From: a virus
Virus genome (UHGV): UHGV-0138524
Reading direction: 5' to 3' (one strand)
Length of the DNA stretch: 20,478 nucleotides
Part shown: positions 3,123-18,765 of the stretch, in pieces
Numbering within the stretch: position 1 is the stretch's first letter
How the letters are laid out: each line of letters begins with the position of its first letter
Made by a program: the position numbers and the translations under genes
Notes under the pieces: generated by a model
Database searches by the model: none
Told to the model about the DNA's origin: nothing
Seen by the model: only the letters and a program-made list of their open reading frames with translations

Positions 3123-3341
3123 TTTAATCATAGTAGAAACATAATTAGCAGTTTGAATCCTGCCACTCCTGTAAAGCCGCTGCTCCTGGTGGCTTTTCCA
3201 TGCACACCACCATCACGCATCAGATGCGTCTCACGCGCACGAACACACTCGACCACCAACGAACCAGCAGCGACCACGACAGCGCCATCACGACGCGCTC
3301 AGAGGATAATTTTTATTATTACGCATCACTGCTGGCGCGCA

Positions 3342-3360
3342 ATGCTTTCCCCGCCACGCC
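3342..3360. other. cos cohesive-end sequence (186/P2 type)
   Basis: ATGCTTTCCCCGCCACGCC; reverse complement GGCGTGGCGGGGAAAGCAT equals the 19-nt cohesive end of coliphage 186 as I recall it and differs at two positions from P2 GGCGAGGCGGGGAAAGCAC. Confidence 0.6.
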
Positions 3361-3520
3361 TGCCCGCTTTATGGGGCGGTTTTAATGCAGTTGCATGACA
3401 ACTCTGGATCCGCGCTAGCTCTGGCGGCGCACGGACAGAACGGGCAAGACTGACGCATGCAAAACCATGCACCTAATGCATGCACGACTAAAAAACGGGA
3501 AATTCGCGGAAAAATGGCAT

Positions 3521-3550
3521 AAAAAAACCGGCATTCAGGGTGCCGGTTTT
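3521..3550. terminator. Bidirectional rho-independent terminator at the end of the SOS operon
   Basis: A7 (3521-3527), stem CCGGCA (3528-3533) / TGCCGG (3541-3546), T4 (3547-3550); on the minus strand the hairpin is followed by U7. Confidence 0.6.
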
Positions 3551-3568
3551 AGTCTGGTTTTGTCGCGA

Positions 3569-3670
3569 TTAATGGCCGCGCAATGCGCCAATAACACTGT
3601 TGAGGCACATGCTGGCAACAATCATCAGAAAAATCGTCGTCCACGGATTTTCATAAACGATAGATAACAT
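3569..3670 (-). CDS. Candidate 33-aa hydrophobic (single transmembrane-like) peptide
   Basis: Hand translation MLSIVYENPWTTIFLMIVASMCLNSVIGALRGH; AAGAGGAA Shine-Dalgarno-like sequence upstream of the ATG; ends just before the terminator; absent from the ORF track, which lists nothing under 60 aa. Confidence 0.3.
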   Translation of the reverse strand: MLSIVYENPWTTIFLMIVASMCLNSVIGALRGH

Positions 3671-3686
3671 ATTTATATAGTTCCTC

Positions 3687-3992
3687 TTATTTGCGCATTC
3701 TGATGTGATTTAACAGGTGTTTGATAACGACTGATAGCTCATCTTTACCGGCCTGCTCGACCATTTTTGCGGTGTAGCTTTCCACCTCGCGAGAGCTCAG
3801 GTCGTTATTTAAAGCCATTAAAGTCAGATTCTTTGCCCAATCGGCAAACGGGTCATTTTTCGATGAAAGGGGATTTTGCATGTACAAAAACCTCGAATTA
3901 TTTAACCAGCAGACGGTTGAAGTATTTGCGACGCTATGACCGGCTAACGCCTCGCGTAGCTCGTTGTTCAACCCCGCCAGCACTGAAAGCAA
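3687..3992 (-). CDS. Hypothetical 101-aa protein in the SOS operon (TTG start as called)
   Basis: ORF downstream of the DinI-like gene in the same orientation; no family recognised. Confidence 0.4.
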   Translation of the reverse strand: MLSVLAGLNNELREALAGHSVANTSTVCWLNNSRFLYMQNPLSSKNDPFADWAKNLTLMALNNDLSSREVESYTAKMVEQAGKDELSVVIKHLLNHIRMRK

Positions 3993-4014
3993 GTTTCAGC
4001 ACCGGCGGCGTTTG

Positions 4015-4248
4015 TTAATGCAGCCAGCTATCGTCCTCCCATACCTGCTGCATGATTTCCATTACTCGTTTTTTATCTTCGTCCAGTTTCAAACCGCTTA
4101 GTTCAACGCCATTAGCGGAGCCCTTGCGAATTCGGATAGCAGTCTTTGGGTAAATAGGTTGAAGATTGCGGTACAGTTCAGCCTCAAGTGCATCCAATGT
4201 TGCCTGACTAATTTTTTGCTCTTTATCCAACGTGATATTGATTCTCAT
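4015..4248 (-). CDS. DinI-family protein (DNA-damage-inducible protein I-like; Tum-like module)
   Basis: 77-aa MRINITLDKEQKISQATLDALEAELYRNLQ...KKRVMEIMQQVWEDDSWLH resembles E. coli DinI and the DinI-like part of 186 Tum. Confidence 0.65.
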   Translation of the reverse strand: MRINITLDKEQKISQATLDALEAELYRNLQPIYPKTAIRIRKGSANGVELSGLKLDEDKKRVMEIMQQVWEDDSWLH

Positions 4249-4251
4249 AAT

Positions 4252-4434
4252 CTAATCAGCCTTATAAAAATTATCATCTTCGGTTTCGTTATTTTCGCTG
4301 TTTGCTAGGTCTGCAATGAGAGTGAGCGCGAGCTTTAAGTCTGATGGCTTGCAGTTTGCAATCAGAGATACCTCGGCAATAAATTGCACACAAGCCCACT
4401 TTTGCTGCGTTCGGCTGAAATGTTCGCCAACCAT
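4252..4434 (-). CDS. Hypothetical 60-aa protein, first gene of the SOS operon
   Basis: ATG at 4434 preceded by GGGAGGG; a LexA box lies about 20 nt upstream; stop is 3 nt before the DinI-like ATG. Confidence 0.4.
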   Translation of the reverse strand: MVGEHFSRTQQKWACVQFIAEVSLIANCKPSDLKLALTLIADLANSENNETEDDNFYKAD

Positions 4435-4453
4435 GAAATCCCTCCCACAGGGT

Positions 4454-4473
4454 TACTGTATATTTATACAGTA
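4454..4473. promoter_or_regulatory. LexA (SOS) box overlapping the promoter of the minus-strand operon
   Basis: TACTGTATATTTATACAGTA, a near-perfect match to the palindromic CTGT-N8-ACAG consensus. Confidence 0.75.
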
Positions 4474-4547
4474 GCACGTATTGGCAAAAGATGGGAAGAA
4501 AAAAAACGAATAGAGCGATTGCTGTATGTGCATGATATGGATATGAA

Positions 4548-6770
4548 TTACCCATGTATTGGTTTTGATGCTTCAGCCATCGCCGCAACACGATTAAGGA
4601 TTTTCCGAGCTTTAGCCTCATGCGATGGTGCTGCGGAAAATATTTCTCCTTTGGCCGTTCCGCGTAGCCATTTACCATCAAAACAACTTTTACCACCGGC
4701 CATCAGGTGCAGGGCTTCGCCCCGGCTGATATTAATGCCGGTTGTCAGATGTATCTCATCGATAGTTTTAGCTATAGCTGCGTTTTGCTCATCCGTTCCG
4801 TGGATGAATTTTCGCCGTGCTGCTGGCTTTTGCTTCCTGAGTCGGTTGGTCAATTCTCGTCTTTCACGCCGACTCAGTGGTTTTGTTAAATCCAGTATCG
4901 GTGGATCGCTTTCGCTTCCCGTACAGTTATTGACAGAACTCCGAGGGACGGCTTTGCCGTCCTGAAGGTCAACGGCCAAATCAACAGCACGCTTCGGAAC
5001 AATCTTCCACTGAGTGAGCCGGGTTAAAATCGGGCTTCCTGCACCTATGGAGGAATCGTAGACCCCCTTAATACATACCGTTTCCTCACCGTACTGATTA
5101 AGCTCGGTGCGCGGTTCATACAGTGTGCGCACCTGTAAATCATCGCGACGGACAAACGGCCCACCCTGAGCATTAACATAACCAGCCCAGTCACCAGCGT
5201 CGGCGGCATCATGGACGGCGGCAAACTCAACGCTCAGACCGTGCGCGGTTTCGGTATCAGCGAGGCGACGCAACTCACGGTAAACCGTCACCGGCGCACC
5301 ACCAATAAACTGAAACTGACGGATGTGCCAGCGCGCAGCCCATGCTGAAACGGCGGGGGCTGTCTCTTTCAGCAGCTCACCGCTTTCATCATCGGTTTCA
5401 CCATCGAGAGCATAACCGTCGATATTTTTTGAAATGTATTTAGCAACATAGCCGGTTGCGCTGCCTTTCTCCGGGTCAATGGACTCGGCGTGGAAACGTG
5501 CTTTTTTGGATTTATCGCTTTTCAGTTCGTGGCGGTCTTCTTTCCATGCGTATTTACGGACGATGGAGCGAACATATTCAACATCTTCCGGCAGCATGAA
5601 CATCAGCATGTGCCAGTGTGGAGTGCCGTCGTGATGGGGCTCGGCGACACGAATACCGAAAATACGGACATCTTCCCGATGTAGTTTGGCACGGATACGC
5701 GCCCAGATACCGGTTAGATAGTTTTGCGTGTCAGCCGGGCTGGCACCGCTCCATTTGCTGTTACGGTAACCGGCTTTAGTCGTGGCGTGATATTTTGACG
5801 GCGCGGTTAGAGTGTAAAACTCACCGACATAACCGAGCTCATTACAGATGTTTTCAAACCCACGAATGCGGGTCATGAGCTCACAGCGGCGAATCGCAGG
5901 GTTAGCAACTGAGCCATCATATTTTTCAATTAGGCTGATACGGTTGCCGTCTTCGTCTTCGAGATCCAGACCTTTGAGAAATTCACGAGTGCGGCGCTTT
6001 TGTTCACGCCAGTCAGTCACGCAGTTTTTACTCGCGTAAGTGTTTTTTTTCTTACTGACGTTGCCGACTGCAATTTGCAGGTGTTCGCGCCACGTAGCTG
6101 CAACACGGCGCAAACGACCGCGCCACCACCCATCGTTAAACATTTTGGCGATAGCCGGTGCGATTTCATCCGCACCGACATATTTTTTTTCAACCCGCTC
6201 CCAATGTGGTGGGATAACGTTGAATTGGAGGGAAATAAAGCCAGCACGAATATACCAGGTGTACAGCGTTTTAAGCTCGCCGAATCCGTGGTCATTAATG
6301 TTGGCAAGTTCACCACGAATGAAATTAGCAATATCAGCGGCCAACAGGTCAACATCAGCGCGCGACATGTCCGGGAGACGGTTATATTGGGCGACCATAT
6401 TAACCATGCGTGACGACAGATATTGCATTTGCTGAGTATCAAAATGACTTCCAAAAACAGCGGTTGATACCTTGCTGTTGATACCAGCGCATTCGTATTT
6501 TTTTGCGACCAGTTCAAGACGCGGCAATGCCTTTTTGCAGAAGCTGATTAAAAATGCATTGGCTCGTTGACTACCCTGATTTTGCTCCAGCACCGCAGCA
6601 GTGCGATAAACATCTAACCGCACGCAGTCGGGCTGGAGAGAAAGCACCTTTTTTGCATGCAGCAAAGCCGCGAACATACGGTCGCGGCGATGCTGTTGCT
6701 CATAAGTAAGGTATGGGCTGGAGATTGCCGACCGTGGGACGTTCCACGGATAAGCGAATTGAACAGCCAA
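4548..6770 (-). CDS. A: Replication initiation endonuclease (P2 gpA-like rolling-circle initiator)
   Basis: 740-aa ORF with HDGTPHWHMLMF (His-hydrophobic-His) and GYVAKYISKN (paired tyrosine) motifs typical of the family. Confidence 0.85.
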   Translation of the reverse strand: MAVQFAYPWNVPRSAISSPYLTYEQQHRRDRMFAALLHAKKVLSLQPDCVRLDVYRTAAVLEQNQGSQRANAFLISFCKKALPRLELVAKKYECAGINSKVSTAVFGSHFDTQQMQYLSSRMVNMVAQYNRLPDMSRADVDLLAADIANFIRGELANINDHGFGELKTLYTWYIRAGFISLQFNVIPPHWERVEKKYVGADEIAPAIAKMFNDGWWRGRLRRVAATWREHLQIAVGNVSKKKNTYASKNCVTDWREQKRRTREFLKGLDLEDEDGNRISLIEKYDGSVANPAIRRCELMTRIRGFENICNELGYVGEFYTLTAPSKYHATTKAGYRNSKWSGASPADTQNYLTGIWARIRAKLHREDVRIFGIRVAEPHHDGTPHWHMLMFMLPEDVEYVRSIVRKYAWKEDRHELKSDKSKKARFHAESIDPEKGSATGYVAKYISKNIDGYALDGETDDESGELLKETAPAVSAWAARWHIRQFQFIGGAPVTVYRELRRLADTETAHGLSVEFAAVHDAADAGDWAGYVNAQGGPFVRRDDLQVRTLYEPRTELNQYGEETVCIKGVYDSSIGAGSPILTRLTQWKIVPKRAVDLAVDLQDGKAVPRSSVNNCTGSESDPPILDLTKPLSRRERRELTNRLRKQKPAARRKFIHGTDEQNAAIAKTIDEIHLTTGINISRGEALHLMAGGKSCFDGKWLRGTAKGEIFSAAPSHEAKARKILNRVAAMAEASKPIHG

Positions 6771-6771
6771 T

Positions 6772-6993
6772 TTATACCCCCCGATAGTGTTTGTTTTTTA
6801 GCTCTGCTATTTGCTGGCAGGTTATGCAAAAAGCCACGCCCGGAATCGCAATGCGGCGAGCTTCCGGGATTGGTGTGTCACATTCCTCGCAAAGAAAACG
6901 GGAAGGTGCAGCGATACGGGTGCGTGCGTTGCTGATGTGGCGTTCGCGGTCTTCCTGCTCGCGCAGTTGTGCTAAATCCATTGCGTCGGCCAT
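6772..6993 (-). CDS. TraR/DksA-family C4 zinc-finger protein
   Basis: 73 aa with CEECDTPIPEARRIAIPGVAFCITCQ; start overlaps the upstream stop (TAATG). Confidence 0.65.
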   Translation of the reverse strand: MADAMDLAQLREQEDRERHISNARTRIAAPSRFLCEECDTPIPEARRIAIPGVAFCITCQQIAELKNKHYRGV

Positions 6994-7220
6994 TAGTGCA
7001 GCTCCTGTGATTCATTCTCAAAGCGGGTTGCTTCACGGCGCAGCAGTTCGGCAGCTTCGGTGCCGCTCATACCCTCTCTGGTAATATGAATAGCCAGCGC
7101 CTCAAGGCGGATGGAAACAGCGAGCGCGCGGTCTTTACGCTCTTCTTTTTTTGCATCGGTCAGCAATACGGCCAGCGCATCGCTATCAGTGTTAAAACTA
7201 CGGATTTCGGTATTACGCAT
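6993..7220 (-). CDS. Hypothetical early-operon protein (75 aa)
   Basis: ORF translationally coupled to the downstream zinc-finger gene. Confidence 0.45.
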   Translation of the reverse strand: MRNTEIRSFNTDSDALAVLLTDAKKEERKDRALAVSIRLEALAIHITREGMSGTEAAELLRREATRFENESQELH

Positions 7221-7287
7221 AATTAACTCTCCTGCTTTCGGGCAATAAGATGCCCGGCGGGTTTACGCCATTAAATTTCTGTTTGGA

Positions 7288-7626
7288 TTAATTCGGCATG
7301 GTTAGCCGTTTGGGAAATAAGCTCACTACTGCACGAAAATGATTCATCGCTGTAATAAGCGCCTTTTTCTCGTCAGTAGTCAGCTCACTTAATTCGAGTT
7401 CATGACGAGCCGCCGGTATTTTTGCCAGAAAGAAAATAGCGGCCAGCGCCCGATTATTTTCTTCAAATTGTGGGTCACGTTTATCGCGCATATCATCGAC
7501 AAAACGTTCAACCTCTTTCCAGCTATCGCCCCAATATCTCGCGCGCAATTCGGCAACATGATTGAGACCGGCCAGACGTTCACCCGCTTTTAGCGGAACA
7601 GTCGCGGAAACAGCTTCGATAGCCAT
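7288..7626 (-). CDS. Hypothetical early-operon protein (112 aa)
   Basis: ORF in the early operon orientation; no family recognised. Confidence 0.45.
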   Translation of the reverse strand: MAIEAVSATVPLKAGERLAGLNHVAELRARYWGDSWKEVERFVDDMRDKRDPQFEENNRALAAIFFLAKIPAARHELELSELTTDEKKALITAMNHFRAVVSLFPKRLTMPN

Positions 7627-7790
7627 GATTCCCCCCGCTTTTGAGTAGAGAGGCCAGCCAGTAAATCAGCCTGCGAGTGGCTCGGGTGCCAGCGCTTGCC
7701 GTCCTTACCTGCGATCCAGCCGTGGCCGTAGTGCATGCCGGGGCTTTGCTTAACGAGCAGCGATGCGAATGACGGTTCACTTTTCAGCAT
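7590..7790 (-). CDS. Hypothetical small protein (about 66 aa)
   Basis: ATG at 7790 just downstream of the B stop; overlaps the next gene, so uncertain. Confidence 0.25.
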   Translation of the reverse strand: MLKSEPSFASLLVKQSPGMHYGHGWIAGKDGKRWHPSHSQADLLAGLSTQKRGESWLSKLFPRLFR

Positions 7791-7797
7791 ACGCACC

Positions 7798-8337
7798 TCA
7801 AATCAGACCAAACGATGCGCCAATACCGCTCATGGTATCGACCACGCTCGACATAGCTGGATTAGTCTGCAGACGTGCATGCAGCGCCAGAGCCGACAAT
7901 GACAACATGCGAATGCCGGAGTTAACGCTTTCAATCATGTTGTGCTTACGGGCAGTGGTCAGACGTTCATCAGATACCGCGCCGCTCGCCAGTTCGCCGA
8001 GTTCACGCATCGCGCGCATGACATAAGACTGCAATTTGTCTTTAGCCAACTCATTAACCGGCACGCATGGTAGGCAGTGAATCTGCGCTAAAAAACCATC
8101 AATGAGGGTTGAGTCTTCGGTCAGGTCAGTCAGCAGCCACAATTCAGGCGGCGTGAACTGGTGAGGCTGTTCCGGGTTGAGCTTGTTACGTAACGTTTGA
8201 ACGTTCATACCTGCACGCTCGGCCAGCTTCGCCATGTTGTGACGCTGTGCGAAAATGCGGCATGCTTCGTCATAGTGGGGATGTTTGGAAACCTGAAAAT
8301 CAAACATGGTTAAATTCCCTCTAACTTGCATAATCAA
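7798..8337 (-). CDS. B: Replication protein B (P2 gpB-like)
   Basis: 179 aa MIMQVRGNLTMFDFQVSKHPHYDEACRIFAQRHNMAKLAERAGMNVQTLRNKLNPEQPHQF... resembles P2 B. Confidence 0.75.
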   Translation of the reverse strand: MIMQVRGNLTMFDFQVSKHPHYDEACRIFAQRHNMAKLAERAGMNVQTLRNKLNPEQPHQFTPPELWLLTDLTEDSTLIDGFLAQIHCLPCVPVNELAKDKLQSYVMRAMRELGELASGAVSDERLTTARKHNMIESVNSGIRMLSLSALALHARLQTNPAMSSVVDTMSGIGASFGLI

Positions 8338-8339
8338 AT

Positions 8340-8711
8340 TCAGTTAAGAGCGGTGCGCTGGTCGATGTAGCGACAATCAATCGCTTGTTGAGTCAGCTTA
8401 TCGCGCCATGCTTTTACATTTACGAGGGTTCGGCTTCGTTTAGCAGCTTCCTCTTTGTTGGAAAAGTCTTTGGTCGGAGCTTTGAGAAGGACTCCCTCAT
8501 CGAGCCATTGCCAGACCAGACGCTCGCTAACACCGCGAGTAGCGGCGAAGTCTTTCACAGTCATCGTGTCTGACATAGCGGAGCGAATCATTGTCTGTAG
8601 AGCTGGCAGCATGGCGGTAACGATGGCATCAAACTGTGTTGGGTCTAGCAGCACAGTTTGATTTTGTGAGTTTTGCGAGTCGTGCGTCGAGATTGATTTT
8701 GCATCTGACAT
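8340..8711 (-). CDS. Cox/Apl-like helix-turn-helix regulator or excisionase, first gene of the early lytic operon
   Basis: 123 aa with an HTH-like stretch MTVKDFAATRGVSERLVWQWLDEGVL; faces the repressor gene; the true start may be an internal Met. Confidence 0.45.
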   Translation of the reverse strand: MSDAKSISTHDSQNSQNQTVLLDPTQFDAIVTAMLPALQTMIRSAMSDTMTVKDFAATRGVSERLVWQWLDEGVLLKAPTKDFSNKEEAAKRSRTLVNVKAWRDKLTQQAIDCRYIDQRTALN

Positions 8712-8823
8712 ATCGCATTATCTCCTGTTGTTTGAAATGTAGTGCAGTGGTGTGCATCTTGGTCGGTGAGCACCAATATAGATCGCTAAATTTTGGTTGT
8801 AAACAAAATTCTTGTTGGTGTCA

Positions 8824-9670
8824 TATGTCTAAAAATGATGTTAATGCGTCTGCCGCATTGGAACGTGTCCTTTCTGCATACGGCTTTAAGCAGCAAAAGG
8901 AACTAGCCGAAAGGCTTGGCATACATGCAAACAACGTGAGTAGCTGGCTTGCTAGAAACGTAATCCCTAGCAACGTTTTCGTTGAGTGTGCTCTTGATAC
9001 TGGAGCTGACCTGCGATGGCTAATTAATGGTGAGCTTGCAAATGCAAGATTTGAAGTGGTGAAAACTAAGCTTAAAGGTAAGCAACTCTATGATGAAATC
9101 ATGGCAAATGGAGGGAGGGCGGTTCTGCGTCGGATTCTCGATGCGTATGGTTTTACTCTGCAAAAAGAGCTTGGAGATTTATTAGGTATATCTTCCGGCA
9201 CTATAAGCACTTGGGTTAGACGCGATTTTTTCCCCGGTGACGTGGTTGTCACTTGCGCCCTTGATACTGGCGTATCGTTAGAATGGTTATCAACCGGAAA
9301 AGGCCAGATGCGTAACAGTAATGATGGTGAACCGGCAAATGCTTTAACGATTAGAAAGTGCCGCCTCGAGGCTGGCGAACTCAAAGATATCGGACGCTGG
9401 ACTCCTGATATATCTATGGTTCCATCAAATACTGATGATTTAGTGTTTATTGATGGTGTGAGCACATCTTGGCTTGTTGATAGTTCTAACTCGAAGATAG
9501 GAAATGGTCGCTGGCTTATTGGTATTGATGGCGCACTCGATGTTTTTGACGTAATCAGGTTGCCAGGCGGAAAGGTCAGGTTATCAAATAAGTCTGCTGA
9601 GTTTGAATGTAATATTTCAGATATCACACCATCAGGTGCGGTTATTTTTACTTTGGAAAAGCATGTTTAA
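8824..9670 (+). CDS. CI-type immunity repressor (186 CI-like) with a tandemly duplicated N-terminal DNA-binding domain
   Basis: From the internal ATG at 8824 (MSKNDV...); repeat 1 LERVLSAYGFKQQKELAERLGIHANNVSSWLARNVIPSNVFVECALDTGADLRWLINGE and repeat 2 LRRILDAYGFTLQKELGDLLGISSGTISTWVRRDFFPGDVVVTCALDTGVSLEWLSTGK; the track ORF starts at 8636, inside the upstream gene. Confidence 0.65.
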
Positions 9671-9679
9671 GGAGCAGTA

Positions 9680-10018
9680 ATGAAAAAGTTTATATTTGCG
9701 ATAGTCTGCATTGCACTTTCTTCCTCAGCCATAGCCGCTGAGAAGTTTAAAGAGATAGACGGCGCTGCATATGGTGACAAGTGGCCTCTAACCTTTGAAA
9801 AGGCAAAGGTATCATGTGTTAACCGTGCTTATGCTTTTGTGTATGACATCAAAACTGATGATAGATATCCTCTGAATGGCATGGCGGTAGATGCTGTTAA
9901 ATCAGGAAAGCTGGAGGGGTCTAACTTAGATGACGTATGGAAGGATGACCCTGAGTATGACGGCGTTAAAATTTCAATTTCACCGGTGATTGATGCCGCT
10001 ACAGCCCTTTGTAATTAA
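9680..10018 (+). CDS. Secreted or periplasmic small protein (DUF2511/YebY-like, assigned from memory); moron between the repressor and int
   Basis: N-terminal signal peptide MKKFIFAIVCIALSSSAIAAE; GGAG 7 nt upstream of the ATG. Confidence 0.55.
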   Translation: MKKFIFAIVCIALSSSAIAAEKFKEIDGAAYGDKWPLTFEKAKVSCVNRAYAFVYDIKTDDRYPLNGMAVDAVKSGKLEGSNLDDVWKDDPEYDGVKISISPVIDAATALCN

Positions 10019-10042
10019 TTTTCTTTTAGCCTCGGTATCGCA

Positions 10043-11092
10043 ATGACTGTAAGTAAACAAAAAAGTGGAAAATGGTTGTGTGAACTCTATCCAAATGGTC
10101 GAGAAGGGCGGCGTATACGTCGGCAGTTCAATACCAAAGGTGAGGCCGAGGCATTTGAAGCATTTACCAAAAGCGAGAGTGAAGATAAGCCGTGGCTCGG
10201 CAAGAAAGAAGACCGCCGACGCTTAAGCGAGATTATTCAGCTTTGGCACAATTTGCACGGTCAAGCGTTAGTCGCCAGTAAGTCGAGATTTGCAAAGCTT
10301 CAAATCGTATGTAATGGACTTGGCGACCCGATTGCATCTCGCCTTACCGCGAAAGACTGGGCTCATTATCGTGACCGTCGATTACGTGGTGAAATAGACA
10401 ATGGTTATCATAAAGACCCCTCGAAATGGATCGCCAAACCTATAACCGTCAATCGCGAACAACAATACCTAGAAGCAGTGTTTAATGAGCTCCGCCGGTT
10501 AGGGGAGTGGAGCCTACCCAATCCACTTGATGGGATCCGAGTATTCAAAGAAGCTGAGAAAGAAATGTCCTGGCTAACTTTGTCTCAGCTCCCGGAGCTG
10601 TTTCGAGCCTGCGAGCAATACGGCAAAGAAGACCTCACCATGATTGTTAAGGTGTGCCTTGCAACCGGCGCTCGATGGGGGGAAGCGGAGAGATTGACCC
10701 GACCTCAACTTTCTCCATATAAACTAACGTTCACCAAAACCAAAGGTAAGAAGAATCGCACAGTTCCTATTCCTAAATGGCTGTACGACGAGTTGTCCGT
10801 ACGTCAAGGCAGAATGTTTAAACCCTGCTATCAGGAGTTTAAAAAGATGCTCAAACTAACGAATATTGAATTGACGGAAGGGCAGAAGACGCACGTTTTG
10901 CGTCATACTTTTGGTGCGCATTTTATGATGAACGGAGGGAATATACTGGTGCTGCAGAAAATTCTCGGACATGCCAATATTCGAGAAACAATGAAGTATG
11001 CGCACTTTGCTCCTGACCACCTTGAACAAGCTGTAACCCTCAATCCGTTATCGCTGTATGTTGGCGACAATGTGGCGGCAGAGGTTGCATAA
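10043..11092 (+). CDS. int: Tyrosine integrase (P2/186 family)
   Basis: 349 aa; N-terminus ...GKWLCELYPNGREGRRIRRQFNTKGEAEAFE; catalytic-region signature VLRHTFGAHFMMNGGNILVLQKILGHANIRETMKYAH. Confidence 0.85.
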   Translation: MTVSKQKSGKWLCELYPNGREGRRIRRQFNTKGEAEAFEAFTKSESEDKPWLGKKEDRRRLSEIIQLWHNLHGQALVASKSRFAKLQIVCNGLGDPIASRLTAKDWAHYRDRRLRGEIDNGYHKDPSKWIAKPITVNREQQYLEAVFNELRRLGEWSLPNPLDGIRVFKEAEKEMSWLTLSQLPELFRACEQYGKEDLTMIVKVCLATGARWGEAERLTRPQLSPYKLTFTKTKGKKNRTVPIPKWLYDELSVRQGRMFKPCYQEFKKMLKLTNIELTEGQKTHVLRHTFGAHFMMNGGNILVLQKILGHANIRETMKYAHFAPDHLEQAVTLNPLSLYVGDNVAAEVA

Positions 11093-11227
11093 CACTGCAA
11101 TTCACTGCATTAAAAATTACTTTAACTAGTTGTTTTATATGGTAAGTGTTTGTTCGCTGTGGGGTGTTAATAGGAGCGTCTTAACTGATAACGTATTCGC
11201 GCTACATCCAAAGCGTGTTATGAAACA

Positions 11228-11257
11228 AGGGGTTAGCGAATTGCTAACCCCTTTTTT
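11228..11257 (+). terminator. Rho-independent terminator downstream of int
   Basis: Stem AGGGGTTAGC / GCTAACCCCT with loop GAATT, followed by T6. Confidence 0.6.
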
Positions 11258-11310
11258 ATTGGTGGTGGCGGCAAATTGGCGGCAGAGGTTGGAGCGATGG
11301 CGACAGATAT

Positions 11311-11331
11311 AAAAAAACCTGCCGAAGCAGG
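11311..11331 (-). terminator. Rho-independent terminator downstream of ogr
   Basis: On the minus strand: CCTGC-TTCG-GCAGG followed by T7, just after the ogr stop. Confidence 0.55.
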
Positions 11332-11332
11332 T

Positions 11333-11551
11333 TCAAAGCCAAAGTTGCTGTTGTTGGTTTCTGATGGGGTGTGGCGGAGCAGGATCAACAGTACCCGGTT
11401 TCACAATGAATCTTGATAGCGTCTCAAAAGTGATAAATGTACATCCGCAATTTATGTTCTGGCACTGGTGATAACGTTCTTTTGTTTCGGTGCTAAGGTA
11501 CCGGCTAGTGCGAGCATGTGCGGCGTTTTGGCATAACGGGCAGTGCATCAT
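11333..11551 (-). CDS. ogr: Ogr/Delta-family zinc-finger late-gene activator
   Basis: 72 aa MMHCPLCQNAAHARTSRYLSTETKERYHQCQNINCGCTFITFETLSRFIVKPG... closely resembles P2 Ogr; GGGGA upstream of this Met; the track ORF starts 15 codons further upstream. Confidence 0.85.
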   Translation of the reverse strand: MMHCPLCQNAAHARTSRYLSTETKERYHQCQNINCGCTFITFETLSRFIVKPGTVDPAPPHPIRNQQQQLWL

Positions 11552-11626
11552 AATTATTTCCCCTGCTGGCGTATCTGAGGGAATAATAAACTTCAAAATT
11601 GCATTTGCAAGTTTTGGTTTGCTTTT

Positions 11627-12796
11627 TCACTCCTCATTTTCTTCTGAGCTGTACTCCACATCGGAGAGTTTAACCTCAAGCTCTAAGCCCGTCGTGAAAC
11701 CGTTATTATTGAGGTTGTGGGTCACCTTGCTGATTAACCATGCCTGCTCGTCTATGACGCGCTTAAAGCCTGACACGCGTACAGGCGTCTCAGGAAATAA
11801 ATCCGCTCGCCCTAGCGCCAGTGTGATTGAAAACTCCGCAACACCTCGCTGCAGTTTATCCCACTTAGCCTGAGCGGCGCGCATCGCCTGTGCCTTTGAG
11901 GCATAGACTGTCGTCAGCGCCAGCACGTTATCGGCTTCACCGGCCATGTACTCACCCTCACGTGCTTCCTGTTCTTTTTTGACCTTTGTCTTTTTGCTGA
12001 CCGGCTTTGCTTTTGGGTGTTCCAGTGCGCGCAGGTGCTTCTCTTTTGGCTTGCGTTTCAGCGTTACTTTCTGCTTTTGTGGCTTCGGGTCTTTGGTGTG
12101 CAACCATTTAGCAGTGACGCCGGTATAAGCCCCACGGTCGGCAATGGCAAACTGATGACGGTCACCATCACTGCGGGTCAGCGTCATTTGCGGGACGGGT
12201 TTGCCGCTGGCCGTCATCGCACTACCGGCTTTCAGAAACAACAGTTTCCCTGCCTTCACCGATACCGTTGCCCCGTTGCGGTCAGCCAGTCGACTCAAAA
12301 ATACCGCGTCGGATTCCTGCGACTGGTCGATATGCGGTACCGGGATTTTTTTCAGCGATTCCGCAATGCTGGCCGTCAGTTTGTTGCGCTTTGCGATGGT
12401 ACTGACCAGTTCGCCGATGGTGGTGTCGTGCCATGACTCTTCACGCCTGGAATTTAGCGTGCCGCGAAAGTCCGCGCTGCGCGCCCGGATGGTCAGGGTA
12501 TCAGGAGCCCCCCGGTGCTCAATCTCATCGACCGTAAAATCCCCCTTATTCAGCAGCGCCGAACCCTGCCAGCCAAGCCACAACGTCAGCACTGCCCCGC
12601 GCAGGGGTAACTCGACTTTCCCATCGGTGTCATCGAGCTCAATGTCGAGCTGGTCAGCTTCAAAGCCCCTATTGTCCGTCATGGTGAGAGAAATCAGCCG
12701 GTCGCTGAAGTTGCTGGTAATGTCCTGACTGTTCAGCGTCAGCATAAAAGCCGGTGCAAGGCTGGCACCGGCGTCAATTGCCATCCCCGTTATCAT
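11627..12796 (-). CDS. D: Tail protein D (P2 gpD-like late control/tail protein)
   Basis: 389-aa ORF in conserved P2 order (ogr-D-U-T); sequence resembles gpD. Confidence 0.8.
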   Translation of the reverse strand: MITGMAIDAGASLAPAFMLTLNSQDITSNFSDRLISLTMTDNRGFEADQLDIELDDTDGKVELPLRGAVLTLWLGWQGSALLNKGDFTVDEIEHRGAPDTLTIRARSADFRGTLNSRREESWHDTTIGELVSTIAKRNKLTASIAESLKKIPVPHIDQSQESDAVFLSRLADRNGATVSVKAGKLLFLKAGSAMTASGKPVPQMTLTRSDGDRHQFAIADRGAYTGVTAKWLHTKDPKPQKQKVTLKRKPKEKHLRALEHPKAKPVSKKTKVKKEQEAREGEYMAGEADNVLALTTVYASKAQAMRAAQAKWDKLQRGVAEFSITLALGRADLFPETPVRVSGFKRVIDEQAWLISKVTHNLNNNGFTTGLELEVKLSDVEYSSEENEE

Positions 12797-13278
12797 GCAG
12801 TGAAACCTCCGGGCATACCCTGCAGTTTATCTGTCAAATTACCGGCAGAGCCGAGAAGCTCACTGGCCTGTTTATTCAGGTCACCAAACATCTCTGTCAG
12901 CGATTCATCAACCCGTTTTAGCGAAAGCGTGAAATCAATCTTTCTGGCCGCACCATCACTGAAAAACTCGGTGCGTGTAGTCGATACTTTATCGACGATA
13001 TACATCCCGAGGATATTTCCGGTTCCCTCTATCAACGGCCACGCTCTGCCTTCATTGGCCATCACCTCTACAGCCTTAAGTGAGATCCAACCGCCAGTGA
13101 TAGCGGGGTATAGCGTACCAGCAAGCTGTATAGAGGTTTCCCCCTCGCCAAGAAACTGATAGGCAGGTGGTTTACCCACCCGGTCATTGGACACCCAGCG
13201 ATAATCTTTCGAATGCTGCATCGACTGGTAAGGCAGGGTGCGAAGTTCAAACACAAACATTCCGAGAGCAAGCATCAT
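12793..13278 (-). CDS. U: Tail protein U (P2 gpU-like)
   Basis: 161-aa ORF overlapping the D start; order and sequence resemble gpU. Confidence 0.8.
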   Translation of the reverse strand: MMLALGMFVFELRTLPYQSMQHSKDYRWVSNDRVGKPPAYQFLGEGETSIQLAGTLYPAITGGWISLKAVEVMANEGRAWPLIEGTGNILGMYIVDKVSTTRTEFFSDGAARKIDFTLSLKRVDESLTEMFGDLNKQASELLGSAGNLTDKLQGMPGGFTA

Positions 13279-13291
13279 CGTTTAATCCCCC

Positions 13292-15734
13292 TCAATAGTC
13301 GTGGGTCATGTTGGCACGCTGGCGGGCGCGTTTATCGCGCTCAATCTGTTCGAGCGTGTCGCGTAGTTGTCTGTCAAGCTGATGCCCCGGCGCAACACCT
13401 CCCGGCAGATTGATGTTGTATTCGCTTTTGCTCTGGTCAATGTAAGAGCGCCCCGCCGGTGCGGTAACTGGCTGATAAGCCTGATAGCCGCCATATGTGC
13501 TGGTTGCCGGGATGTAGGAATTACCCTGTGTGGCGGCATTGGTTTTGGCGGCGGTCTGGTCGAGGCTGTCCGACTCTTTGTTGATGATGCCGAGCTTTTC
13601 GAGAAGCCAGTCGACACCGCTGCGCAGCTTGTTAAAAACATTGAGCGGAGCCATCAAGGCAGAGGCCAGTGCCTGACCAAATATGACGCCGACACTTTTG
13701 CAGCTATCAAGCGTTTCCTGCGTGGCCTTAACCGGTGCTATCAGGTCTTTAAACCACTGCCAGACGCCGCGCAGTTTCTCGCCGAGACCATCAAAAATGG
13801 GAGCCAGTGGAGCGAACATTTCCCCGACTGGGGCAAAGGCACTCATGATGCCCTCAATCACTCCCGAGAAAAATGCGCTGATGGGCTCCCAATATTTACG
13901 GATGAGTAGCGCCCCCGCCACAATCGCCGCACCGACGGCCACTATCGGCCAGGTAATCGCACCGAGCGCTGTCGCAATGGCACTACCGACGACAGTAAAG
14001 ACCGTACCCAGCACGCCAGCAGCGGCGATAATGGCATTAATCCCCATGACAACCGGCCACGCAACGAGACCAATGCCGCCGATGATACCAATCAGCGCCA
14101 GCGCACCACCGGCGATGATGCCGATAGTTTCCGCTAACTCCTTGTTGTCTTTGATCCAGTCATCAAGCTTTAGCACATACCGTGTTGCTGTCTGAGTTAG
14201 CTGACGCAATGAGCTATCTTGCTGGTCGTAGAGGTCGGTACCGACGGCCTCATAAGCGGATTGAAACTCTTTGAAGTCGCCACCTAAGTTATCCTGCATA
14301 ATTTTAACAAGCTCTGCGGTTTTTCCGTCTGAGGCTTTCAGGGTGGAGGTTAGCTGGTCAAGTTTGCCGGTTGAGGCGGCAGTCATGAGCACCGCCGCCG
14401 CCGAACTGGCTTCCTCACCGAATATCGTTTTCATGTATTCGGCTTGTTGACCGGTGCCGAGATTGTTACGCTCAAAACTGGCCTGCATTTCCTTGAGGAT
14501 GGTAAAAATCGGGCGCGTGTTGCCTTTACTGTCGGAAGTTTTGACCCCCAGCTCCTTAAGCGCATCCCACGCTTTACCGGTCGGAGCCTGCAGGCGGCTT
14601 AAAACCGCACGGCTCCCGGTGCCGGCCATCGAGCCGGTGATTTTGGCGTCATGCAGGGCGCCCACCATTGCGGCAGTTTCTTCAATGCTGACACCGGCAT
14701 TTTTCGCCACCGGCGCGGCGTATGTCAGCGCATCGCTCAGCCCGTCGAAATCGGCAGCAGTTTTATTCATCACCGTCGACAGAACGTCGCCAATGTGCGC
14801 CACCTTGTCATTGGAAAGCTGAAACGCAGAGCGCATCCCCATCAGTAATGCGGCGTTTTCTTCCATCGTGCGACGGTTGGCAAGCGCCATATTGAGGGTG
14901 ACCGGTGTCGTCGCCTGAATGGCTGCCGCATCGCCGCCCCCTTTGGCGATAATAATCTGCGCACTGGCTGCATCATCAGCAGAAGCGGCTGTATTGTCAC
15001 CGAGCTGGCGTGCCTGTTTGCGTAGCGCCTCCATTTCTGGCGACTGCTTATCGACCCCGAGCACGGCCTGCAGCTCGGAATTTTTCTGCGCAAAGTCATA
15101 ACCGGGCATCAGTAATTTCACCCCGGCCATCGTTCCCGCTGTCGCGATACCTACCCCGGCAGCCCCTGCAGCGGCCATGTTACCGGCAAGCTCCTTGCCT
15201 GATTTATATCGCTCTTTCACCCGGCCTAATTTCGCCTGCTGCGCACTGACGCGCGAGTGCCTCACGCTGGCGGTTAAGCTGCGCCGTCGTTTCGCTGATG
15301 GAGGTTTTGAGCCGACGCTCATCGGCAGAAAGGGTGCGGGTATTAATACCGGCCTGCATCAGTTCGGAGCGCTGGCGCTGTACAGACGTTCTCAGACTGT
15401 TGTACTTCGTCTGTAGCTCAGAGGCAGCACGCTTTGCCGCTTCGAGTGCCTGCGCCTGCGCGCGGGTCGGACTGGTGGAGTTTTTAAACTGCACGGCCAG
15501 TTCACCGGCTTCGCGTTTCGCTTTCTCAAGCGCCTGACTGGTCACGGCCAGTTGCGCACTGGCCTTACGAAAGCCGTCGATTTTTGACGCCTGACCATTC
15601 AGGTCACGCAGCCCTTTTTGTGTTTCGCGAATATCGCCCGACAGGGTTTTACTCGCGGTCTGGATGGATTTAAGCGGTCGGGTCGCCTGGTCGACCGCTT
15701 TCAGCAAAACCTCAAGTCTCAGGTTATTACTCAT
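13292..15734 (-). CDS. T: Tail tape measure protein (P2 gpT-like), frame interrupted near 15250-15256 (two overlapping ORFs, 15734->15204 and 15322->13292); possible pseudogene
   Basis: N-terminal ORF ends ...NRQREALARQCAAGEIRPGERAI*; the second frame continues ...RVSAQQAKLGRVKERYKSGKELAGN...; hydrophobic Gly/Ala-rich segments typical of tape measure proteins. Confidence 0.75.
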
Positions 15735-16214
15735 TGTGGTGTCCGCTACGCTGCAGCGCCTTTTCGCGCCATGTGATGAGCTCGGTCAGGCTCAGGGAAT
15801 AGAGCTCTGATAGCGGCCAGTGGAATATCACCGCGATATCCGCCATCAGGTCATCGGTCGACAGGTCGGGCGGGAAATCTACTCCGCCGAAGCCGGTGAC
15901 AAAAAACCAATCACCTTAGCGGCCAGCGACAGCATATCGGGCAGGTTCATTGCGGTAAGCTCCTGCGCCGTAAGCGCGGGGTAGGTCATGCGTGGCAATA
16001 CCTTAATCAGCGCATCGACTTCGGACTGCGCCACCGCTGCCAGACTGACACCGCGCAGGGTACCGGCGTTCGGCTCAATCAGTGTGACTTTATCAATCGT
16101 CTGACCGGCGCGCTTAATCGGCTTGTCGAGGGTCACGACGTTCGGGTTTACGGTGTCAATTTCATTGCCAGCCATATCAACAAATTCAGCGGTTTTACGT
16201 GGTGCTTTTGCCAT
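15727..16214 (-). CDS. E': E+E' fusion produced by programmed -1 ribosomal frameshift
   Basis: Slippery TTTTTTG on the minus strand (plus 15900-15906); the -1 frame continues FFVTGFGGVDFPPDLSTDDLMADIAVIFHWPLSELYSLSLTELITWREKALQRSGHHNE* and its stop overlaps the T start (ATGAGTAA). Confidence 0.65.
15879..16214 (-). CDS. E: Tail assembly chaperone E (P2 gpE-like)
   Basis: 111-aa ORF ending ...DMLSLAAKVIGFLSPASAE; position between FII and T. Confidence 0.75.
   Translation of the reverse strand: MAKAPRKTAEFVDMAGNEIDTVNPNVVTLDKPIKRAGQTIDKVTLIEPNAGTLRGVSLAAVAQSEVDALIKVLPRMTYPALTAQELTAMNLPDMLSLAAKVIGFLSPASAE
15900..15906 (-). promoter_or_regulatory. Slippery heptamer for the E/E' programmed -1 frameshift
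   Basis: T6G run on the coding strand near the 3' end of E, as in P2 and lambda G/GT. Confidence 0.6.
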
Positions 16215-16277
16215 GATGTTTTTCTCTGCTCTGAATGGGGATTAATAACCGGCCAGCAGTGCTGACCGGTCAGGGAA

Positions 16278-16796
16278 TTACAGCCCGATTGCGCGGCGGT
16301 GCTGTTCCAGACGGTCGACGCCGTTCACCTTCTCAACCATGTTGACGGTATCGATTTCGATGACGTCGCTACCATCAATCGTGAGGCGGTAATAGGTGCA
16401 TACGGTCGACAGTTTGGTCGAGGTGTTTTCACCCTGCTTATTCTCGCCGCCGTCGATTTCTTTATGACGGCCACGCATGACCACCTCGACCGCCACGATT
16501 TCGCCAGTGTCGTCACGTTGGTAAGAGCCAGCAAAACGCAACGGCACAGCGTCAGCACCCGGCGCGGCGTACTGCGCCCACAGCGCCACATCAGGCAGGC
16601 CACCGACAGACCATTCGACGGTGAGCGCATCATCGTCGAGACCAAGGTCAATCGCCGCCGCGCCATTCATGCCGCCGCCGCGATAGTTTTCGAGCTTGCG
16701 GGTCAGCTTCGGCAGCGTCACGGATTCAACAACGCCCATGTAGCTAAGGCCGTCATTGAACATGTTCAGATATTTAAGTTTGCGGGGTAGTGCCAT
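16278..16796 (-). CDS. FII: Tail tube protein (P2 gpFII-like)
   Basis: 172-aa ORF directly downstream of the sheath gene; sequence resembles FII. Confidence 0.8.
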   Translation of the reverse strand: MALPRKLKYLNMFNDGLSYMGVVESVTLPKLTRKLENYRGGGMNGAAAIDLGLDDDALTVEWSVGGLPDVALWAQYAAPGADAVPLRFAGSYQRDDTGEIVAVEVVMRGRHKEIDGGENKQGENTSTKLSTVCTYYRLTIDGSDVIEIDTVNMVEKVNGVDRLEQHRRAIGL

Positions 16797-16811
16797 GTTG
16801 TTTCAGGCTCC

Positions 16812-17990
16812 TTAGCTGTTGACCGATTCGGCCAGATTTACCAGATATTTATCGGTGATACGCTGGCGCAGGGTCAGGCTTTCCAGTGGTGGAACCGGTG
16901 TATAGTCGTAGTCGATATACAGTTTCCCGGCCTTGAGGGTTTCCTTATCGTTCGATTCCTCGTCAAACCAGCATTCACCGTCCACGATGTAGCCGTTTGA
17001 TTTCAGCTCGCGGAATTTGGCGTTAATGCCGTCGACAATGTCACGGATAAGTGATGCGGTGATGGGCTTATCGACCGCCCACATGTGCGCCTCGGCCATC
17101 GTGTCGGCCAGCACCTGCGCGGTGCGGGTGTAGTTCTCAAACAGGAAAAGCGGGTCATCAGAGCAGGTGCGGTTACCCCAAAAGCGGAAGCCATCCTTAC
17201 GCACCAGTGTTGTGAGCCCGGCCTCGTTGAGCAGATCAGCATCGGTGCCGGATGCCTGCAAATCCCAAAACACTGACGCACTGATGCCGGTAACACCCTG
17301 CACGCCGATGTTAGACAGGGTTTTGTGCCAGCCGACGGTCTGGTCGATATAGGCACGCAGGCCGAGTGCGCGCGCAGTTGCGTATGCCGGTGCGGTGGCG
17401 TTTGTGGTGGTATCCCATGCAAGGAAATCAGGCCAGATGACCATCAGCTCGCGCTGGCTGAAATTCTCGCGATAGGCCATCGCCTCGGAAATGGTTTTAC
17501 AACCCCATGCGCTGATATAGCCAAAGGCGCGCAGGCTGATACAGACCGAAGCAAGTGCGACTGCGACCTCTTTGGTATCGAGACCCGGCACGCCGAGAAT
17601 GCGCGGCTTAACGCCGGTGACTGCTTCGGCAGTCAACAGCGCCTTGATGCCGGTATATTTACCGCTCTCATCCGTGCCGCCGATGATATTGGAAATGGTC
17701 TGCGCTTCGGCGTCTTCTCCGGTACCTTCGGCAACACGCACGACAACTGTGACAGGTTTTGACTGGTCGGCGATGGCCTGCAGGGAGGCAGACAACGTGC
17801 CTTTTTTACCGGCTTTTGCAATGGCGCTCTGCACATTGGTAATCAATACCGGTTCGTTGAGGGGGAATGTCTCGGCATCCGCATCGCTGGCCGTGCAGAC
17901 CATGCCGACAATTGCGGTTGCAACAGTGGAAATGACGCGGGTGCCGTCGTTAATCTCAAGCACCTGCACGCCGTGGTGAAAATCACTCAT
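16812..17990 (-). CDS. FI: Tail sheath protein (P2 gpFI-like)
   Basis: MSDFHHGVQVLEINDGTRVISTVATAIVGMVCTASDADAETFPLNEPVLITNVQ... closely resembles P2 FI; start taken at the Met at 17990 (GGAG upstream) rather than the track start at 18017. Confidence 0.85.
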   Translation of the reverse strand: MSDFHHGVQVLEINDGTRVISTVATAIVGMVCTASDADAETFPLNEPVLITNVQSAIAKAGKKGTLSASLQAIADQSKPVTVVVRVAEGTGEDAEAQTISNIIGGTDESGKYTGIKALLTAEAVTGVKPRILGVPGLDTKEVAVALASVCISLRAFGYISAWGCKTISEAMAYRENFSQRELMVIWPDFLAWDTTTNATAPAYATARALGLRAYIDQTVGWHKTLSNIGVQGVTGISASVFWDLQASGTDADLLNEAGLTTLVRKDGFRFWGNRTCSDDPLFLFENYTRTAQVLADTMAEAHMWAVDKPITASLIRDIVDGINAKFRELKSNGYIVDGECWFDEESNDKETLKAGKLYIDYDYTPVPPLESLTLRQRITDKYLVNLAESVNS

Positions 17991-18088
17991 CCGGTTAACT
18001 CCGTGGTTAGTGGGCAAGTGTTATTGTCCTGGCTGGTCTGTTGAGGGGCTATTTGTCAGTGTTGGGTGATGTCTGACACATTGAGACA

Positions 18089-18331
18089 TCAGCAACGGAT
18101 GCGGGAAATTTTTTGTATAGCGTTGAGATACCCGAGGCGATCCAGTTTCCAGACCACAAGCGTATCGCCCTCTGACAAGGTTCTGAGTAACCTCTTTAGC
18201 CCCGGCCAGTCTGATGTTTTGCCGCTGATTTTATCTTCGAAAATCAGCTCGCATCCTGCGCACTCCAGTTCATTTCGCTGTAATGCGGTGTTCTGGTCAT
18301 TTGTTGATACACGTACATAACCGATAAACAT
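18089..18331 (-). pseudogene. Serine DNA invertase (Gin/Hin/Pin family), 3'-truncated remnant
   Basis: MFIGYVRVSTNDQNTALQRNELECAGCELIFEDKISGKTSDWPGLKRLLRTLSEGDTLVVWKLDRLG then unrelated residues and a stop; homologous to the first ~70 codons of the intact invertase at 20066. Confidence 0.75.
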
Positions 18332-18385
18332 GAGAAATAACCCGGTAAAAAGTCGGGATCATGCCAGCTGAACGGAATATCTGCA

Positions 18386-18411
18386 TTTTCTAAAAGGTTG
18401 GTTTAGGAGAT
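18386..18411. other. Crossover site M (degenerate outer half-site) bordering the invertible segment
   Basis: TTTTCTAAAAGGTTGGTTTAGGAGAT; the inner half GGTTTAGGAGA matches sites L and R, the outer half reads AAAGG instead of AAACC. Confidence 0.55.
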
Positions 18412-18765
18412 GCGGCAAAAAAAAATGTTGGCACTGGTTCCGGACAGATTCCGGACATGTCTTCATTTGGTAATCAGCGAGCCGATTCGGGGTATCAATA
18501 CCTGCCAGGCGGGTTAATTCTTCAATGGGCAATAGCCATAACGAGAACATCCCCAGAAACAGTATCATTCCCGATTGCGTTTCCAACCAGGGCGCTATGT
18601 GTTGTTGCAACAGACCAGAGTGTTGGGGGTACAGGTCAAGGTTTTGCGTTAACCGCCCAGGATTTTACGAGAACTAATTTCCAGCTACGCGCTTATCAGA
18701 CAGGAACCAACGCTGAATCATCCATCGGCGCTGGCGGGTTTAACTATTTTGCTGTGGGGTATTAA
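18394..18765 (+). CDS. Tail fibre C-terminal variable cassette (start-less Sv segment, silent in this orientation)
   Basis: Frame open from 18394: KVGLGDAAKKNVGTGSGQIPDMSSFGNQ...FNYFAVGY, paralleling the [19 protein letters not shown] junction of H; followed directly by a Tfa gene. Confidence 0.6.
   Translation, partial: KVGLGDAAKKNVGTGSGQIPDMSSFGNQRADSGYQYLPGGLILQWAIAITRTSPETVSFPIAFPTRALCVVATDQSVGGTGQGFALTAQDFTRTNFQLRAYQTGTNAESSIGAGGFNYFAVGY

Follow-up and report, generated by a model that had tools for sequence, protein, structure and literature searches.

Direct repeat at the int 3' end of a PSP3-like phage as a probable part of integrase arm sites flanking an attP core at rplS

In phage lambda, attP consists of a short core flanked by arm-type sites, P1 and P2 on one side and P'1 to P'3 on the other (2 + 3), which are thought to be bound by a separate N-terminal domain of Int with the aid of IHF-induced bends and an excision factor. 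The N-terminal domain of P2-type integrases has been aligned with that of lambda, and the arm sites of P2-like phages have been assigned to two types, that of P2 (tgTGGaCa) and that of 186 (tgccGCCActt) (Nilsson et al., PMC3448106), with the Int residues W/E/Y versus Y/D/R (the latter in P2) being proposed as discriminators of 186-type arm recognition (Nilsson et al. 2011, PMC3448106).

In the P2 record (AF063097), in which the Int sites are given as protein_bind features, the order of elements is int-proximal arm (P' arm), Cox, core, IHF, ogr-proximal arm (P arm), ogr terminator and ogr. The corresponding sites of phage 186 (NC_001317) are annotated as predictions, under the name "predicted Int arm-type recognition sequences", with the consensus YAYCGCCAYTY and with three sites to the left of attP and two to the right; their distances from the predicted crossover are 118 and 107 bp before it and 105, 116 and 134 bp after it.

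In the current work, the window denotes the whole stretch of 20,478 nucleotides (UHGV-0138524) that was analysed. An earlier note on it had drawn attention to a 15-bp direct repeat overlapping the end of int. The architecture described below is already known, in a known phage group, and the results have little import beyond annotation. For a prophage type that is very common in E. coli and Salmonella, they define the layout of attP, with its 13-bp core at the rplS end, its five predicted arm sites, and the stop codon and terminator with which it replaces those of rplS. In practice, the coordinates allow attP, attL and attR PCRs to be designed and rplS-targeting integrases to be recognised.

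The phage and its int-ogr region

The window is a PSP3/SW9-like Eganvirus (186-like, P2 family). Its int-spacer-ogr-D segment is colinear, at 84-90% DNA identity, with six phage genome records (Salmonella phages SW9, SI22, PSP3 and SEN1, Escherichia phage Midge and Klebsiella phage RCIP0057), and the taxonomy is Eganvirus, the genus of phage 186, wherever a record carries a taxonomy line; no single match in phage records covers 80% or more of the window. The genes concerned are the following.

8340-8711, minus strand: candidate recombination directionality factor (Cox/Apl analogue), 123 aa, divergent from cI
10043-11092, plus strand: int, tyrosine integrase, 349 aa (Pfam PF24624 Int_N, 1.3e-30; PF00589 Phage_integrase, 3.3e-19)
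11333-11551, minus strand: ogr/pag late-gene activator, 72 aa, C4 zinc finger (Pfam PF04606 Ogr_Delta, 2.9e-20)
11627-12796, minus strand: D

As the earlier note had observed, int and ogr are adjacent; they are convergent, as int and B/ogr are around att in 186, and the spacer between them measures exactly 240 bp (11093-11332). The PSP3 group has the same int family (above 90% identity in Midge) and a spacer of 240-241 bp, and the ogr/pag gene has the length of the PSP3 pag coding sequence. The genes nearby, encoding the CI repressor, CII, replication protein A and the tail proteins U and D, follow a 186-type layout. The 123-aa Cox-like protein lacks a Pfam match; it matches phrog_575, "Cox-like excisionase and repressor" (E = 8e-5), and phrog_3554 (3e-75), and its homologue in Midge is annotated as Cox.

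Int carries W11, E14 and Y16 at its N-terminus and aligns there with the 186 group, whereas P2, whose arm consensus is tgTGGaCa, has Y/D/R; judged from its sequence, Int is of the 186 type with a predicted N-terminal arm-binding domain. Its identity by tblastn is about 51% to 186-like integrases and about 38% to P2 Int. The identical Int protein was recovered in 2130 blocks of public assemblies, and in all ten blocks listed a yfiB-type gene of the OmpA family or dgcN lies downstream of int, with IS transposase genes intervening in one of them; in none of these ten is ogr found downstream of int.

The attP core and the end of rplS

The location of the core could be read directly from a three-way alignment with E. 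coli NZ_CP062811, the one lysogen in which both junctions were compared: the sole sequence common to attP, to the rplS-ogr junction and to the int-yfiB junction is GAGCGTCTTAACT. In this lysogen the gene order is rpsP-rimM-trmD-rplS, followed by the prophage from ogr to int and then by yfiB, and the segment around the int-ogr junction is represented by two pieces about 31 kb apart, at rplS and at yfiB. The BLAST alignment between window and lysogen consists there of one segment ending at 11186 and another beginning at 11174. The core and the elements to its right are as follows.

11174-11186, plus strand: attP core GAGCGTCTTAACT, identical to the last four rplS codons (E-R-L-N) and the first base of the stop codon
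11186-11258, plus strand: phage-supplied rplS tail, consisting of a stop codon TGA (11186-11188), a 3' UTR and an intrinsic terminator
11315-11334, minus strand: intrinsic terminator of ogr and the late tail operon (terminator scan; -11.6 kcal/mol, z = -3.7)

The search for a matching attB in the host, which the earlier note had proposed, is thereby answered, with the core matching the 3' end of rplS and the prophage lying between rplS and yfiB. The same division recurs elsewhere: a 1-kb segment across the junction is split in 123 of 123 matching E. coli complete genomes, without any piece covering at least 80% of the query, and all 40 of the 40 E. coli complete-genome matches listed begin at window position 11174 and overlap rplS. 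That the core does recombine is evident from natural lysogens at rplS and, as far as the alignments allow its placement, strand exchange must fall within 11174-11186. A PsP3-like P2-type prophage at yfiN-rplS, phiSPU2, has already been reported from Salmonella Pullorum (PMC6449608, Table 1).

As in 186, the core restores the 3' end of a host gene; the target of 186 is the 3' end of a tRNA-Ile gene (ileY), with 36 bp in common with attB, whereas here it is a protein gene, rplS, with 13 bp. No tRNA, tmRNA or Rfam family was detected anywhere in the window by tRNA/tmRNA and Rfam scans, and the att is therefore not tRNA-based. The core of the other PSP3-group phages is the same or near-identical; unlike SW9 and PSP3, the window has G for A directly after the core, so that its identity to the E. 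coli attB extends over 13 bp versus 17 bp in those two phages.

In the lysogen, rplS reads ...GKAARIKERLN followed by the stop, the phage TGA replacing the native TAA, and the native rplS terminator is displaced to a distance of about 31 kb. The terminator within the phage-supplied tail comprises a stem-loop at 11227-11253 and a T-run (-20.5 kcal/mol, z = -5.0; terminator scan and folding). Phages with a target in the 3' end of a gene usually carry a diverged tail of that host gene, and in its similarity to the native rplS 3' UTR and terminator of E. coli the segment 11187-11262 surpassed every one of 2000 shuffles; it therefore looks like a diverged copy of the host rplS tail. The placement of both terminators is shared with described phages: 186 likewise has a terminator between the core and the B-side arm, as well as the tB terminator by that arm, and the position of the ogr terminator matches both 186 tB and the P2 ogr terminator.

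Taken together, the last approximately 35 bp of int and the 240-bp spacer very probably constitute the attP of a PSP3-like, 186-type phage of the P2 family, which would be held here in the unrecombined form, as in free, circular or tandem phage DNA. A crossover within GAGCGTCTTAACT would then place the prophage between rplS and yfiB, and the phage DNA to the right of the core would provide rplS with its new stop codon and new terminator.

The direct repeat and the predicted arm sites

The repeat that had been noted earlier was recovered exactly: TGGCGGCAGAGGTTG is present at 11073-11087 and at 11277-11291, on the plus strand in both cases, and no further copy with two or fewer mismatches is found in the whole window. 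The first copy falls within codons 340-348 of the 349 codons of int. When extended without gaps, the similarity amounts to 25/29 identical positions over 29 nt (11059-11087 versus 11263-11291), the two 29-nt copies being offset by 204 bp. Relative to the core, the end of the first copy of TGGCGGCAGAGGTTG lies 87 bp before it and the start of the second 91 bp after it. These two 29-nt segments, together with the other predicted or candidate sites of the region, are listed below.

11059-11087, plus strand: predicted int-proximal arm module, with TGGCGACA at 11062-11069 and TGGCGGCA at 11073-11080, 11 bp apart
11093-11109, plus strand: candidate excision-factor boxes, two copies of CACTGCA (11093 and 11103) at a spacing of 10 bp
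11123-11135, minus strand: IHF-like site AAACAACTAGTTA, with one mismatch to WATCAANNNNTTR, between the int-proximal arm and the core
11223-11235: second IHF-like match, with one mismatch to WATCAANNNNTTR
11263-11291, plus strand: predicted ogr-proximal arm module, with TGGCGGCA at 11266-11273 and TGGCGGCA at 11277-11284, 11 bp apart
11298-11305, plus strand: third predicted ogr-proximal arm-type site, TGGCGACA

The first copy of TGGCGGCAGAGGTTG is contained in the int-proximal module and the second in the ogr-proximal module. Underlying both is an 8-bp unit, TGGCGRCA, which occurs at 11062, 11073, 11266, 11277 and 11298, in every case on the plus (int-sense) strand, with the int-proximal pair lying inside int codons 340-346. 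The 20.5-kb window holds seven copies of this unit, five of which are gathered on one strand within 244 bp, a clustering with a Poisson probability of about 7e-12. When reverse-complemented, the units read TGCCGCCA (three sites) or TGTCGCCA (two sites), and they match the 186-type arm consensus tgccGCCActt.

The geometry is likewise that of 186. In both phages the int side carries two sites and the B/ogr side three, arranged as direct repeats spaced by 11 bp, on the int-sense strand and built on TGGCG, the distances from the core being in the window 112 and 101 bp before it and 80, 91 and 112 bp after it. The differences are small: the third B-side site of 186 is inverted, whereas all five sites of the window are on the same strand; one position flanking the site consensus is A in every 186 copy and G in the window; and in 186 orf69 intervenes between int and the arm, hence its arm sites do not overlap int, as the int-proximal pair of the window does. 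Such an overlap is found in P2, the P' arm site of which covers the int 3' end, and a repeat over the end of int is therefore normal in this family. Both P2 arms consist of direct repeats (PMC3448106), and its TGTGGAC repeats are situated at the same two places as the sites of the window. Lambda differs from the window in site sequences and in integrase subfamily.

All five sites are present throughout the PSP3 group, and 37 of the 40 motif columns do not vary across six phages, versus 33 of 57 adjacent columns (Fisher p = 1e-4). For the int-proximal module alone the values are 16/16 motif columns and 15/27 neighbouring columns, with codon constraint accounting for part of this conservation since these sites lie in coding sequence, while the three sites of the non-coding ogr-proximal arm give 21/24 invariant motif columns versus 18/30 others (p = 0.024). 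Within that arm, the stretch TGGCGGCAAATTGGCG of the module is invariant in six of six phages, with the flanking spacers varying, and ATGGCGRCAGA, at the third site, is likewise kept in all six.

The arrangement extends to more distant relatives. SEN8, ev040, ENT90 and 186, whose Int proteins show 60%, 55%, 48% and about 51% identity, respectively, to that of the window, each carry a tandem pair of TGGCGRYR units where int ends or just beyond; two or three more follow 180-230 bp further along the same strand, again at 11-bp spacing. The int-proximal pair of SEN8 and 186 does not overlap the int coding sequence. The seventh position of the motif (TGGCGRnn) is C in five of five units of the window and T in five of five units of 186, such a change in step across the two arms being expected of sites that are read by one protein domain.

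Beyond the directly observed positions, clustering, conservation, consensus match and shared geometry of these sites, their function is assigned by analogy: the five TGGCGRCA units are predicted to be arm-type binding sites of Int, and TGGCGGCAGAGGTTG is, with high probability, the best-matching part of two predicted Int arm modules that flank the core, in other words ordinary attP anatomy. A direct repeat over the end of int would accordingly be the expected signature of a P2/186-type attachment site and not a sign of rearrangement. The exact identity between the modules (15 bp, or 25/29) exceeds the 8-11-bp consensus, and some of it may stem from shared ancestry of the arms or gene conversion between them rather than from a requirement of Int; the exact match is 15 bp in the window versus 12 bp in SW9 and PSP3.

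If Int acts as the integrases of P2, 186 and lambda do, it would be heterobivalent, its small N-terminal domain binding the arm sites and its core-binding and catalytic domains the core, with IHF-induced bends allowing single Int molecules to bridge arm and core and an intasome to form. Integration would send the two arm modules to opposite ends of the prophage, and excision would additionally need a Cox/Apl-like factor, for which the 123-aa protein is the candidate. Binding of Int, IHF and the excision factor to the predicted sites is in each case an expectation drawn from these better-known systems.

The second copy could instead be a non-functional relic of a duplicated int 3' end, as the earlier note had suggested, having arisen by illegitimate recombination or by a 204-bp rplS-like insertion. 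Such an origin would suit the 25/29 match, the position of the first copy at the very end of int, and the presence of a host-like rplS end and terminator between the copies. However, the similarity halts at 29 nt and does not continue into int, the third site at 11298 has no counterpart in int, and SEN8 and 186 keep the two-arm layout even though their int-proximal pair lies outside int; furthermore, the motif positions of the non-coding arm are better conserved than its spacers, and the motif equals the published arm consensus. A duplicated int end is therefore considered very unlikely.

Equally improbable is that the repeats are bound not by Int but by a Cox/Apl-like excision factor or some other accessory protein. 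The boxes of P2 and 186 are also direct repeats at 10-11 bp (PMC7498355; PMC3936717), but they are confined to one side of the core and their motif recurs in the early promoter switch region, whereas TGGCGRCA flanks the core on both sides, matches the Int arm consensus and has no copy in the window's cox-cI switch region. Candidate boxes for such a factor are offered, with low confidence, by the CACTGCA pair, which lies between the int-proximal arm and the core like the Cox boxes of P2 and the Apl boxes of 186; a third CACTGCA is found in the cox-cI switch region (8743-8749, minus strand), and the count in the window is not above chance.

The remaining readings are weaker still. The earlier note had also considered the repeat as a possible att core, which would be shared with the host and doubled by past recombination; direct repeats flanking an att region are the usual thing sought, and one copy does abut the end of int. 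Alignment of the junctions rules this out, since the sequence common to attP and both junctions is GAGCGTCTTAACT at 11174-11186, where host and phage sequence switch, and the attB reconstructed from the rplS end to yfiB does not contain TGGCGGCAGAGGTTG, which in the lysogen occurs once per prophage end (L003 2095 and 32911), within phage DNA and about 100 bp inside the junctions. A chance origin, although approximately 0.2 exact 15-mer direct repeats are expected anywhere in a window of 20 kb, is ruled out by clustering and conservation, only about 0.006 exact direct repeats of at least 15 bases being expected within 300 bp of one another per window of this size and composition, and the sites being kept across phages down to about 48% Int identity. 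As a separate possibility, the 204-bp segment between the copies was considered as host DNA acquired by aberrant excision between core-like sites, and this was rejected because six independent phage genomes conserve the whole spacer, which itself includes the real core.

Turning from Int to IHF, 186 has IHF sites flanking its core, and the window has two weak candidate matches, one before the core and one after it. The one at 11123-11135 is part of a block, TTAACTAGTTGTTTTATATG, that is invariant in six of six phages; matches to WATCAANNNNTTR number 22 in the window versus 18 expected, without enrichment, and neither site is significant alone.

The unrecombined junction and a deletion in the window

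The attP configuration described in the earlier note holds, int, spacer and ogr being uninterrupted and colinear with the six phage genome records. Its further claim, that the element is not integrated through this att, agrees with matches to phage or prophage DNA that run through the core, from 3271 to 18437. That claim would have been contradicted by a tRNA gene or host DNA in the int-ogr spacer, which is encountered only in a trivial sense: there is no tRNA gene, and the host-like content of the spacer amounts to the 13 bases of the rplS end and the diverged rplS terminator region. These rplS-like parts do not represent an integration junction, because they are conserved attP parts of free phage genomes. 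A junction in the attP form is to be expected of an excised circle, a tandem prophage and virion DNA alike, and the sequence cannot distinguish between them.

The exact attP junction was absent from E. coli complete genomes and plasmid records and, with a 35-mer spanning the attP core as query, from GTDB species genomes, IMG/VR and JGI metagenome contigs; PLSDB plasmids contained no full-length match to the window.

Compared with an E. coli prophage, the window lacks 11.25 kb. The junction of this deletion, at window position 1555, has one base of microhomology, and the missing segment spans from within the baseplate gene J to within the portal gene, comprising the baseplate genes W and V and the lysis, head and terminase genes. 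A 40-mer across the deletion junction was absent from IMG/VR.

Two more speculative ideas, to which jointly only a small probability is assigned, start from the sequence of the window. The first is that the attP form derives from a natural PSP3-like deletion derivative, which may measure about 21-22 kb, lacking head, terminase and lysis genes and part of the baseplate genes, and may keep int-attP, cI, replication gene A, the cos region and tail genes; such an element might be maintained in circular or tandem form, depending on a complete phage as helper. The deletion is explained equally well by an assembly that is chimeric or collapsed. The second is that Int, in binding to the sites in the last int codons, may feed back on its own gene; a literature search for autoregulation of P2 int through attP gave nothing usable.

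Regarding its ends, the window begins in the tail-fibre gene H and ends in a Hin/Gin-like invertase, and it therefore breaks at the invertible tail-fibre segment, where short-read contigs often break. There is no terminal overlap between the two ends, and when they are joined in silico the reading frame of H degenerates at the joint; considering also that the invertase reading frame is cut, the ends therefore do not simply circularise.

A further observation concerns an open reading frame of 334 aa (2118-3122), which adjoins the portal remnant. It has no Pfam or PADLOC match, and in eight of the eight other assemblies listed it is located beside a complete portal gene.

Host-like sequence at the attachment site

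The phage DNA directly to the right of the attP core (11174-11186), namely window positions 11187-11262, was found to be a diverged homologue of the 3' UTR and terminator of native Escherichia coli rplS, with an alignment score exceeding those of all 2000 shuffled sequences. The phage DNA provides rplS with a TGA stop codon in place of TAA, followed by a terminator of -20.5 kcal/mol, and therefore the rpsP-rimM-trmD-rplS operon is still properly terminated in lysogens.

Alignment of the int-ogr junction with that of six related phages (columns equivalent to window 11174-11189) revealed that the cores of Midge and RCIP0057 read CTG in place of CTT, a change corresponding to a synonymous leucine codon of rplS. 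The window has 13 bp in common with the E. coli attB, whereas SW9, PSP3 and SEN1 each share 17 bp. The attP cores appear to follow the codon variants that rplS shows in different hosts. One E. coli assembly (GCA_900450055.1, locus positions 4411-6380) carries two inserted transposase genes, of the DDE_Tnp_1 and Y1_Tnp families, next to the prophage junction, where they separate the int end of the prophage from yfiB.

A short motif is present beside int and in the lysogeny switch region:

11093-11109, two copies of CACTGCA with 10-bp spacing, just 3' of the int stop codon
8743-8749, minus strand, single copy of CACTGCA in the cox-cI intergenic switch region

The similar sequence AGATGCA lies 10 bp from the latter copy. 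These CACTGCA copies, the number of which over the whole window is not above chance, are possible candidate boxes for the 123-aa Cox-like protein (encoded at 8340-8711).

Internal deletion and window ends

Comparison with an E. coli lysogen that carries a prophage of this type (NZ_CP062811) showed that 11.25 kb, corresponding to positions 12570 to 23823 of the lysogen locus compared, is absent from the window. The relevant features are:

1555, deletion junction between matched segments 40-1555 and 1555-2040
1-662, minus strand, constant part of tail-fibre gene H, cut by the window start
20390-20478, plus strand, Hin/Gin/Cin-like serine invertase ORF, cut by the window end and ending ...MGRFFFHVMGALAEMERELIVERTLAGLAAAREQGRIGG

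At one edge of the missing stretch, baseplate gene J has lost its N-terminal two thirds; at the other, the portal gene lacks its N-terminal part. Everything between these, namely W, V, the lysis and head genes and the terminase, is gone. The junction shows a microhomology of 1 nt, and the two 3' gene fragments that remain there lie back to back, both promoterless. It represents either a genuine deletion derivative, which would be defective, or a contig of chimeric origin.

The window starts inside H and stops inside the invertase ORF, and therefore both breaks fall in the invertible tail-fibre region. The window ends share no terminal overlap, and in a simulated end-join the H frame degenerates across the joint.

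Cargo genes

Two accessory genes were delineated:

2118-3122, plus strand, 334-aa ORF, flanked by the portal remnant and by the stretch that leads to replication gene A
9680-10018, plus strand, 112-aa DUF2511/YebY-like gene between cI and int

The 334-aa ORF, for which Pfam and PADLOC searches returned no match, matches phrog_11743, a family labelled as of unknown function, and window 2041-3270 has no match in the lysogen locus of NZ_CP062811. The exact protein is recorded in 1682 blocks of assemblies, among which a complete portal gene adjoins it in all eight of the eight places listed; it is a common cargo gene at a position already known to vary among P2-like phages. The DUF2511/YebY-like gene is a lysogeny-operon cargo gene, kept in all PSP3-like relatives, the homologue of which in Midge is annotated as periplasmic.
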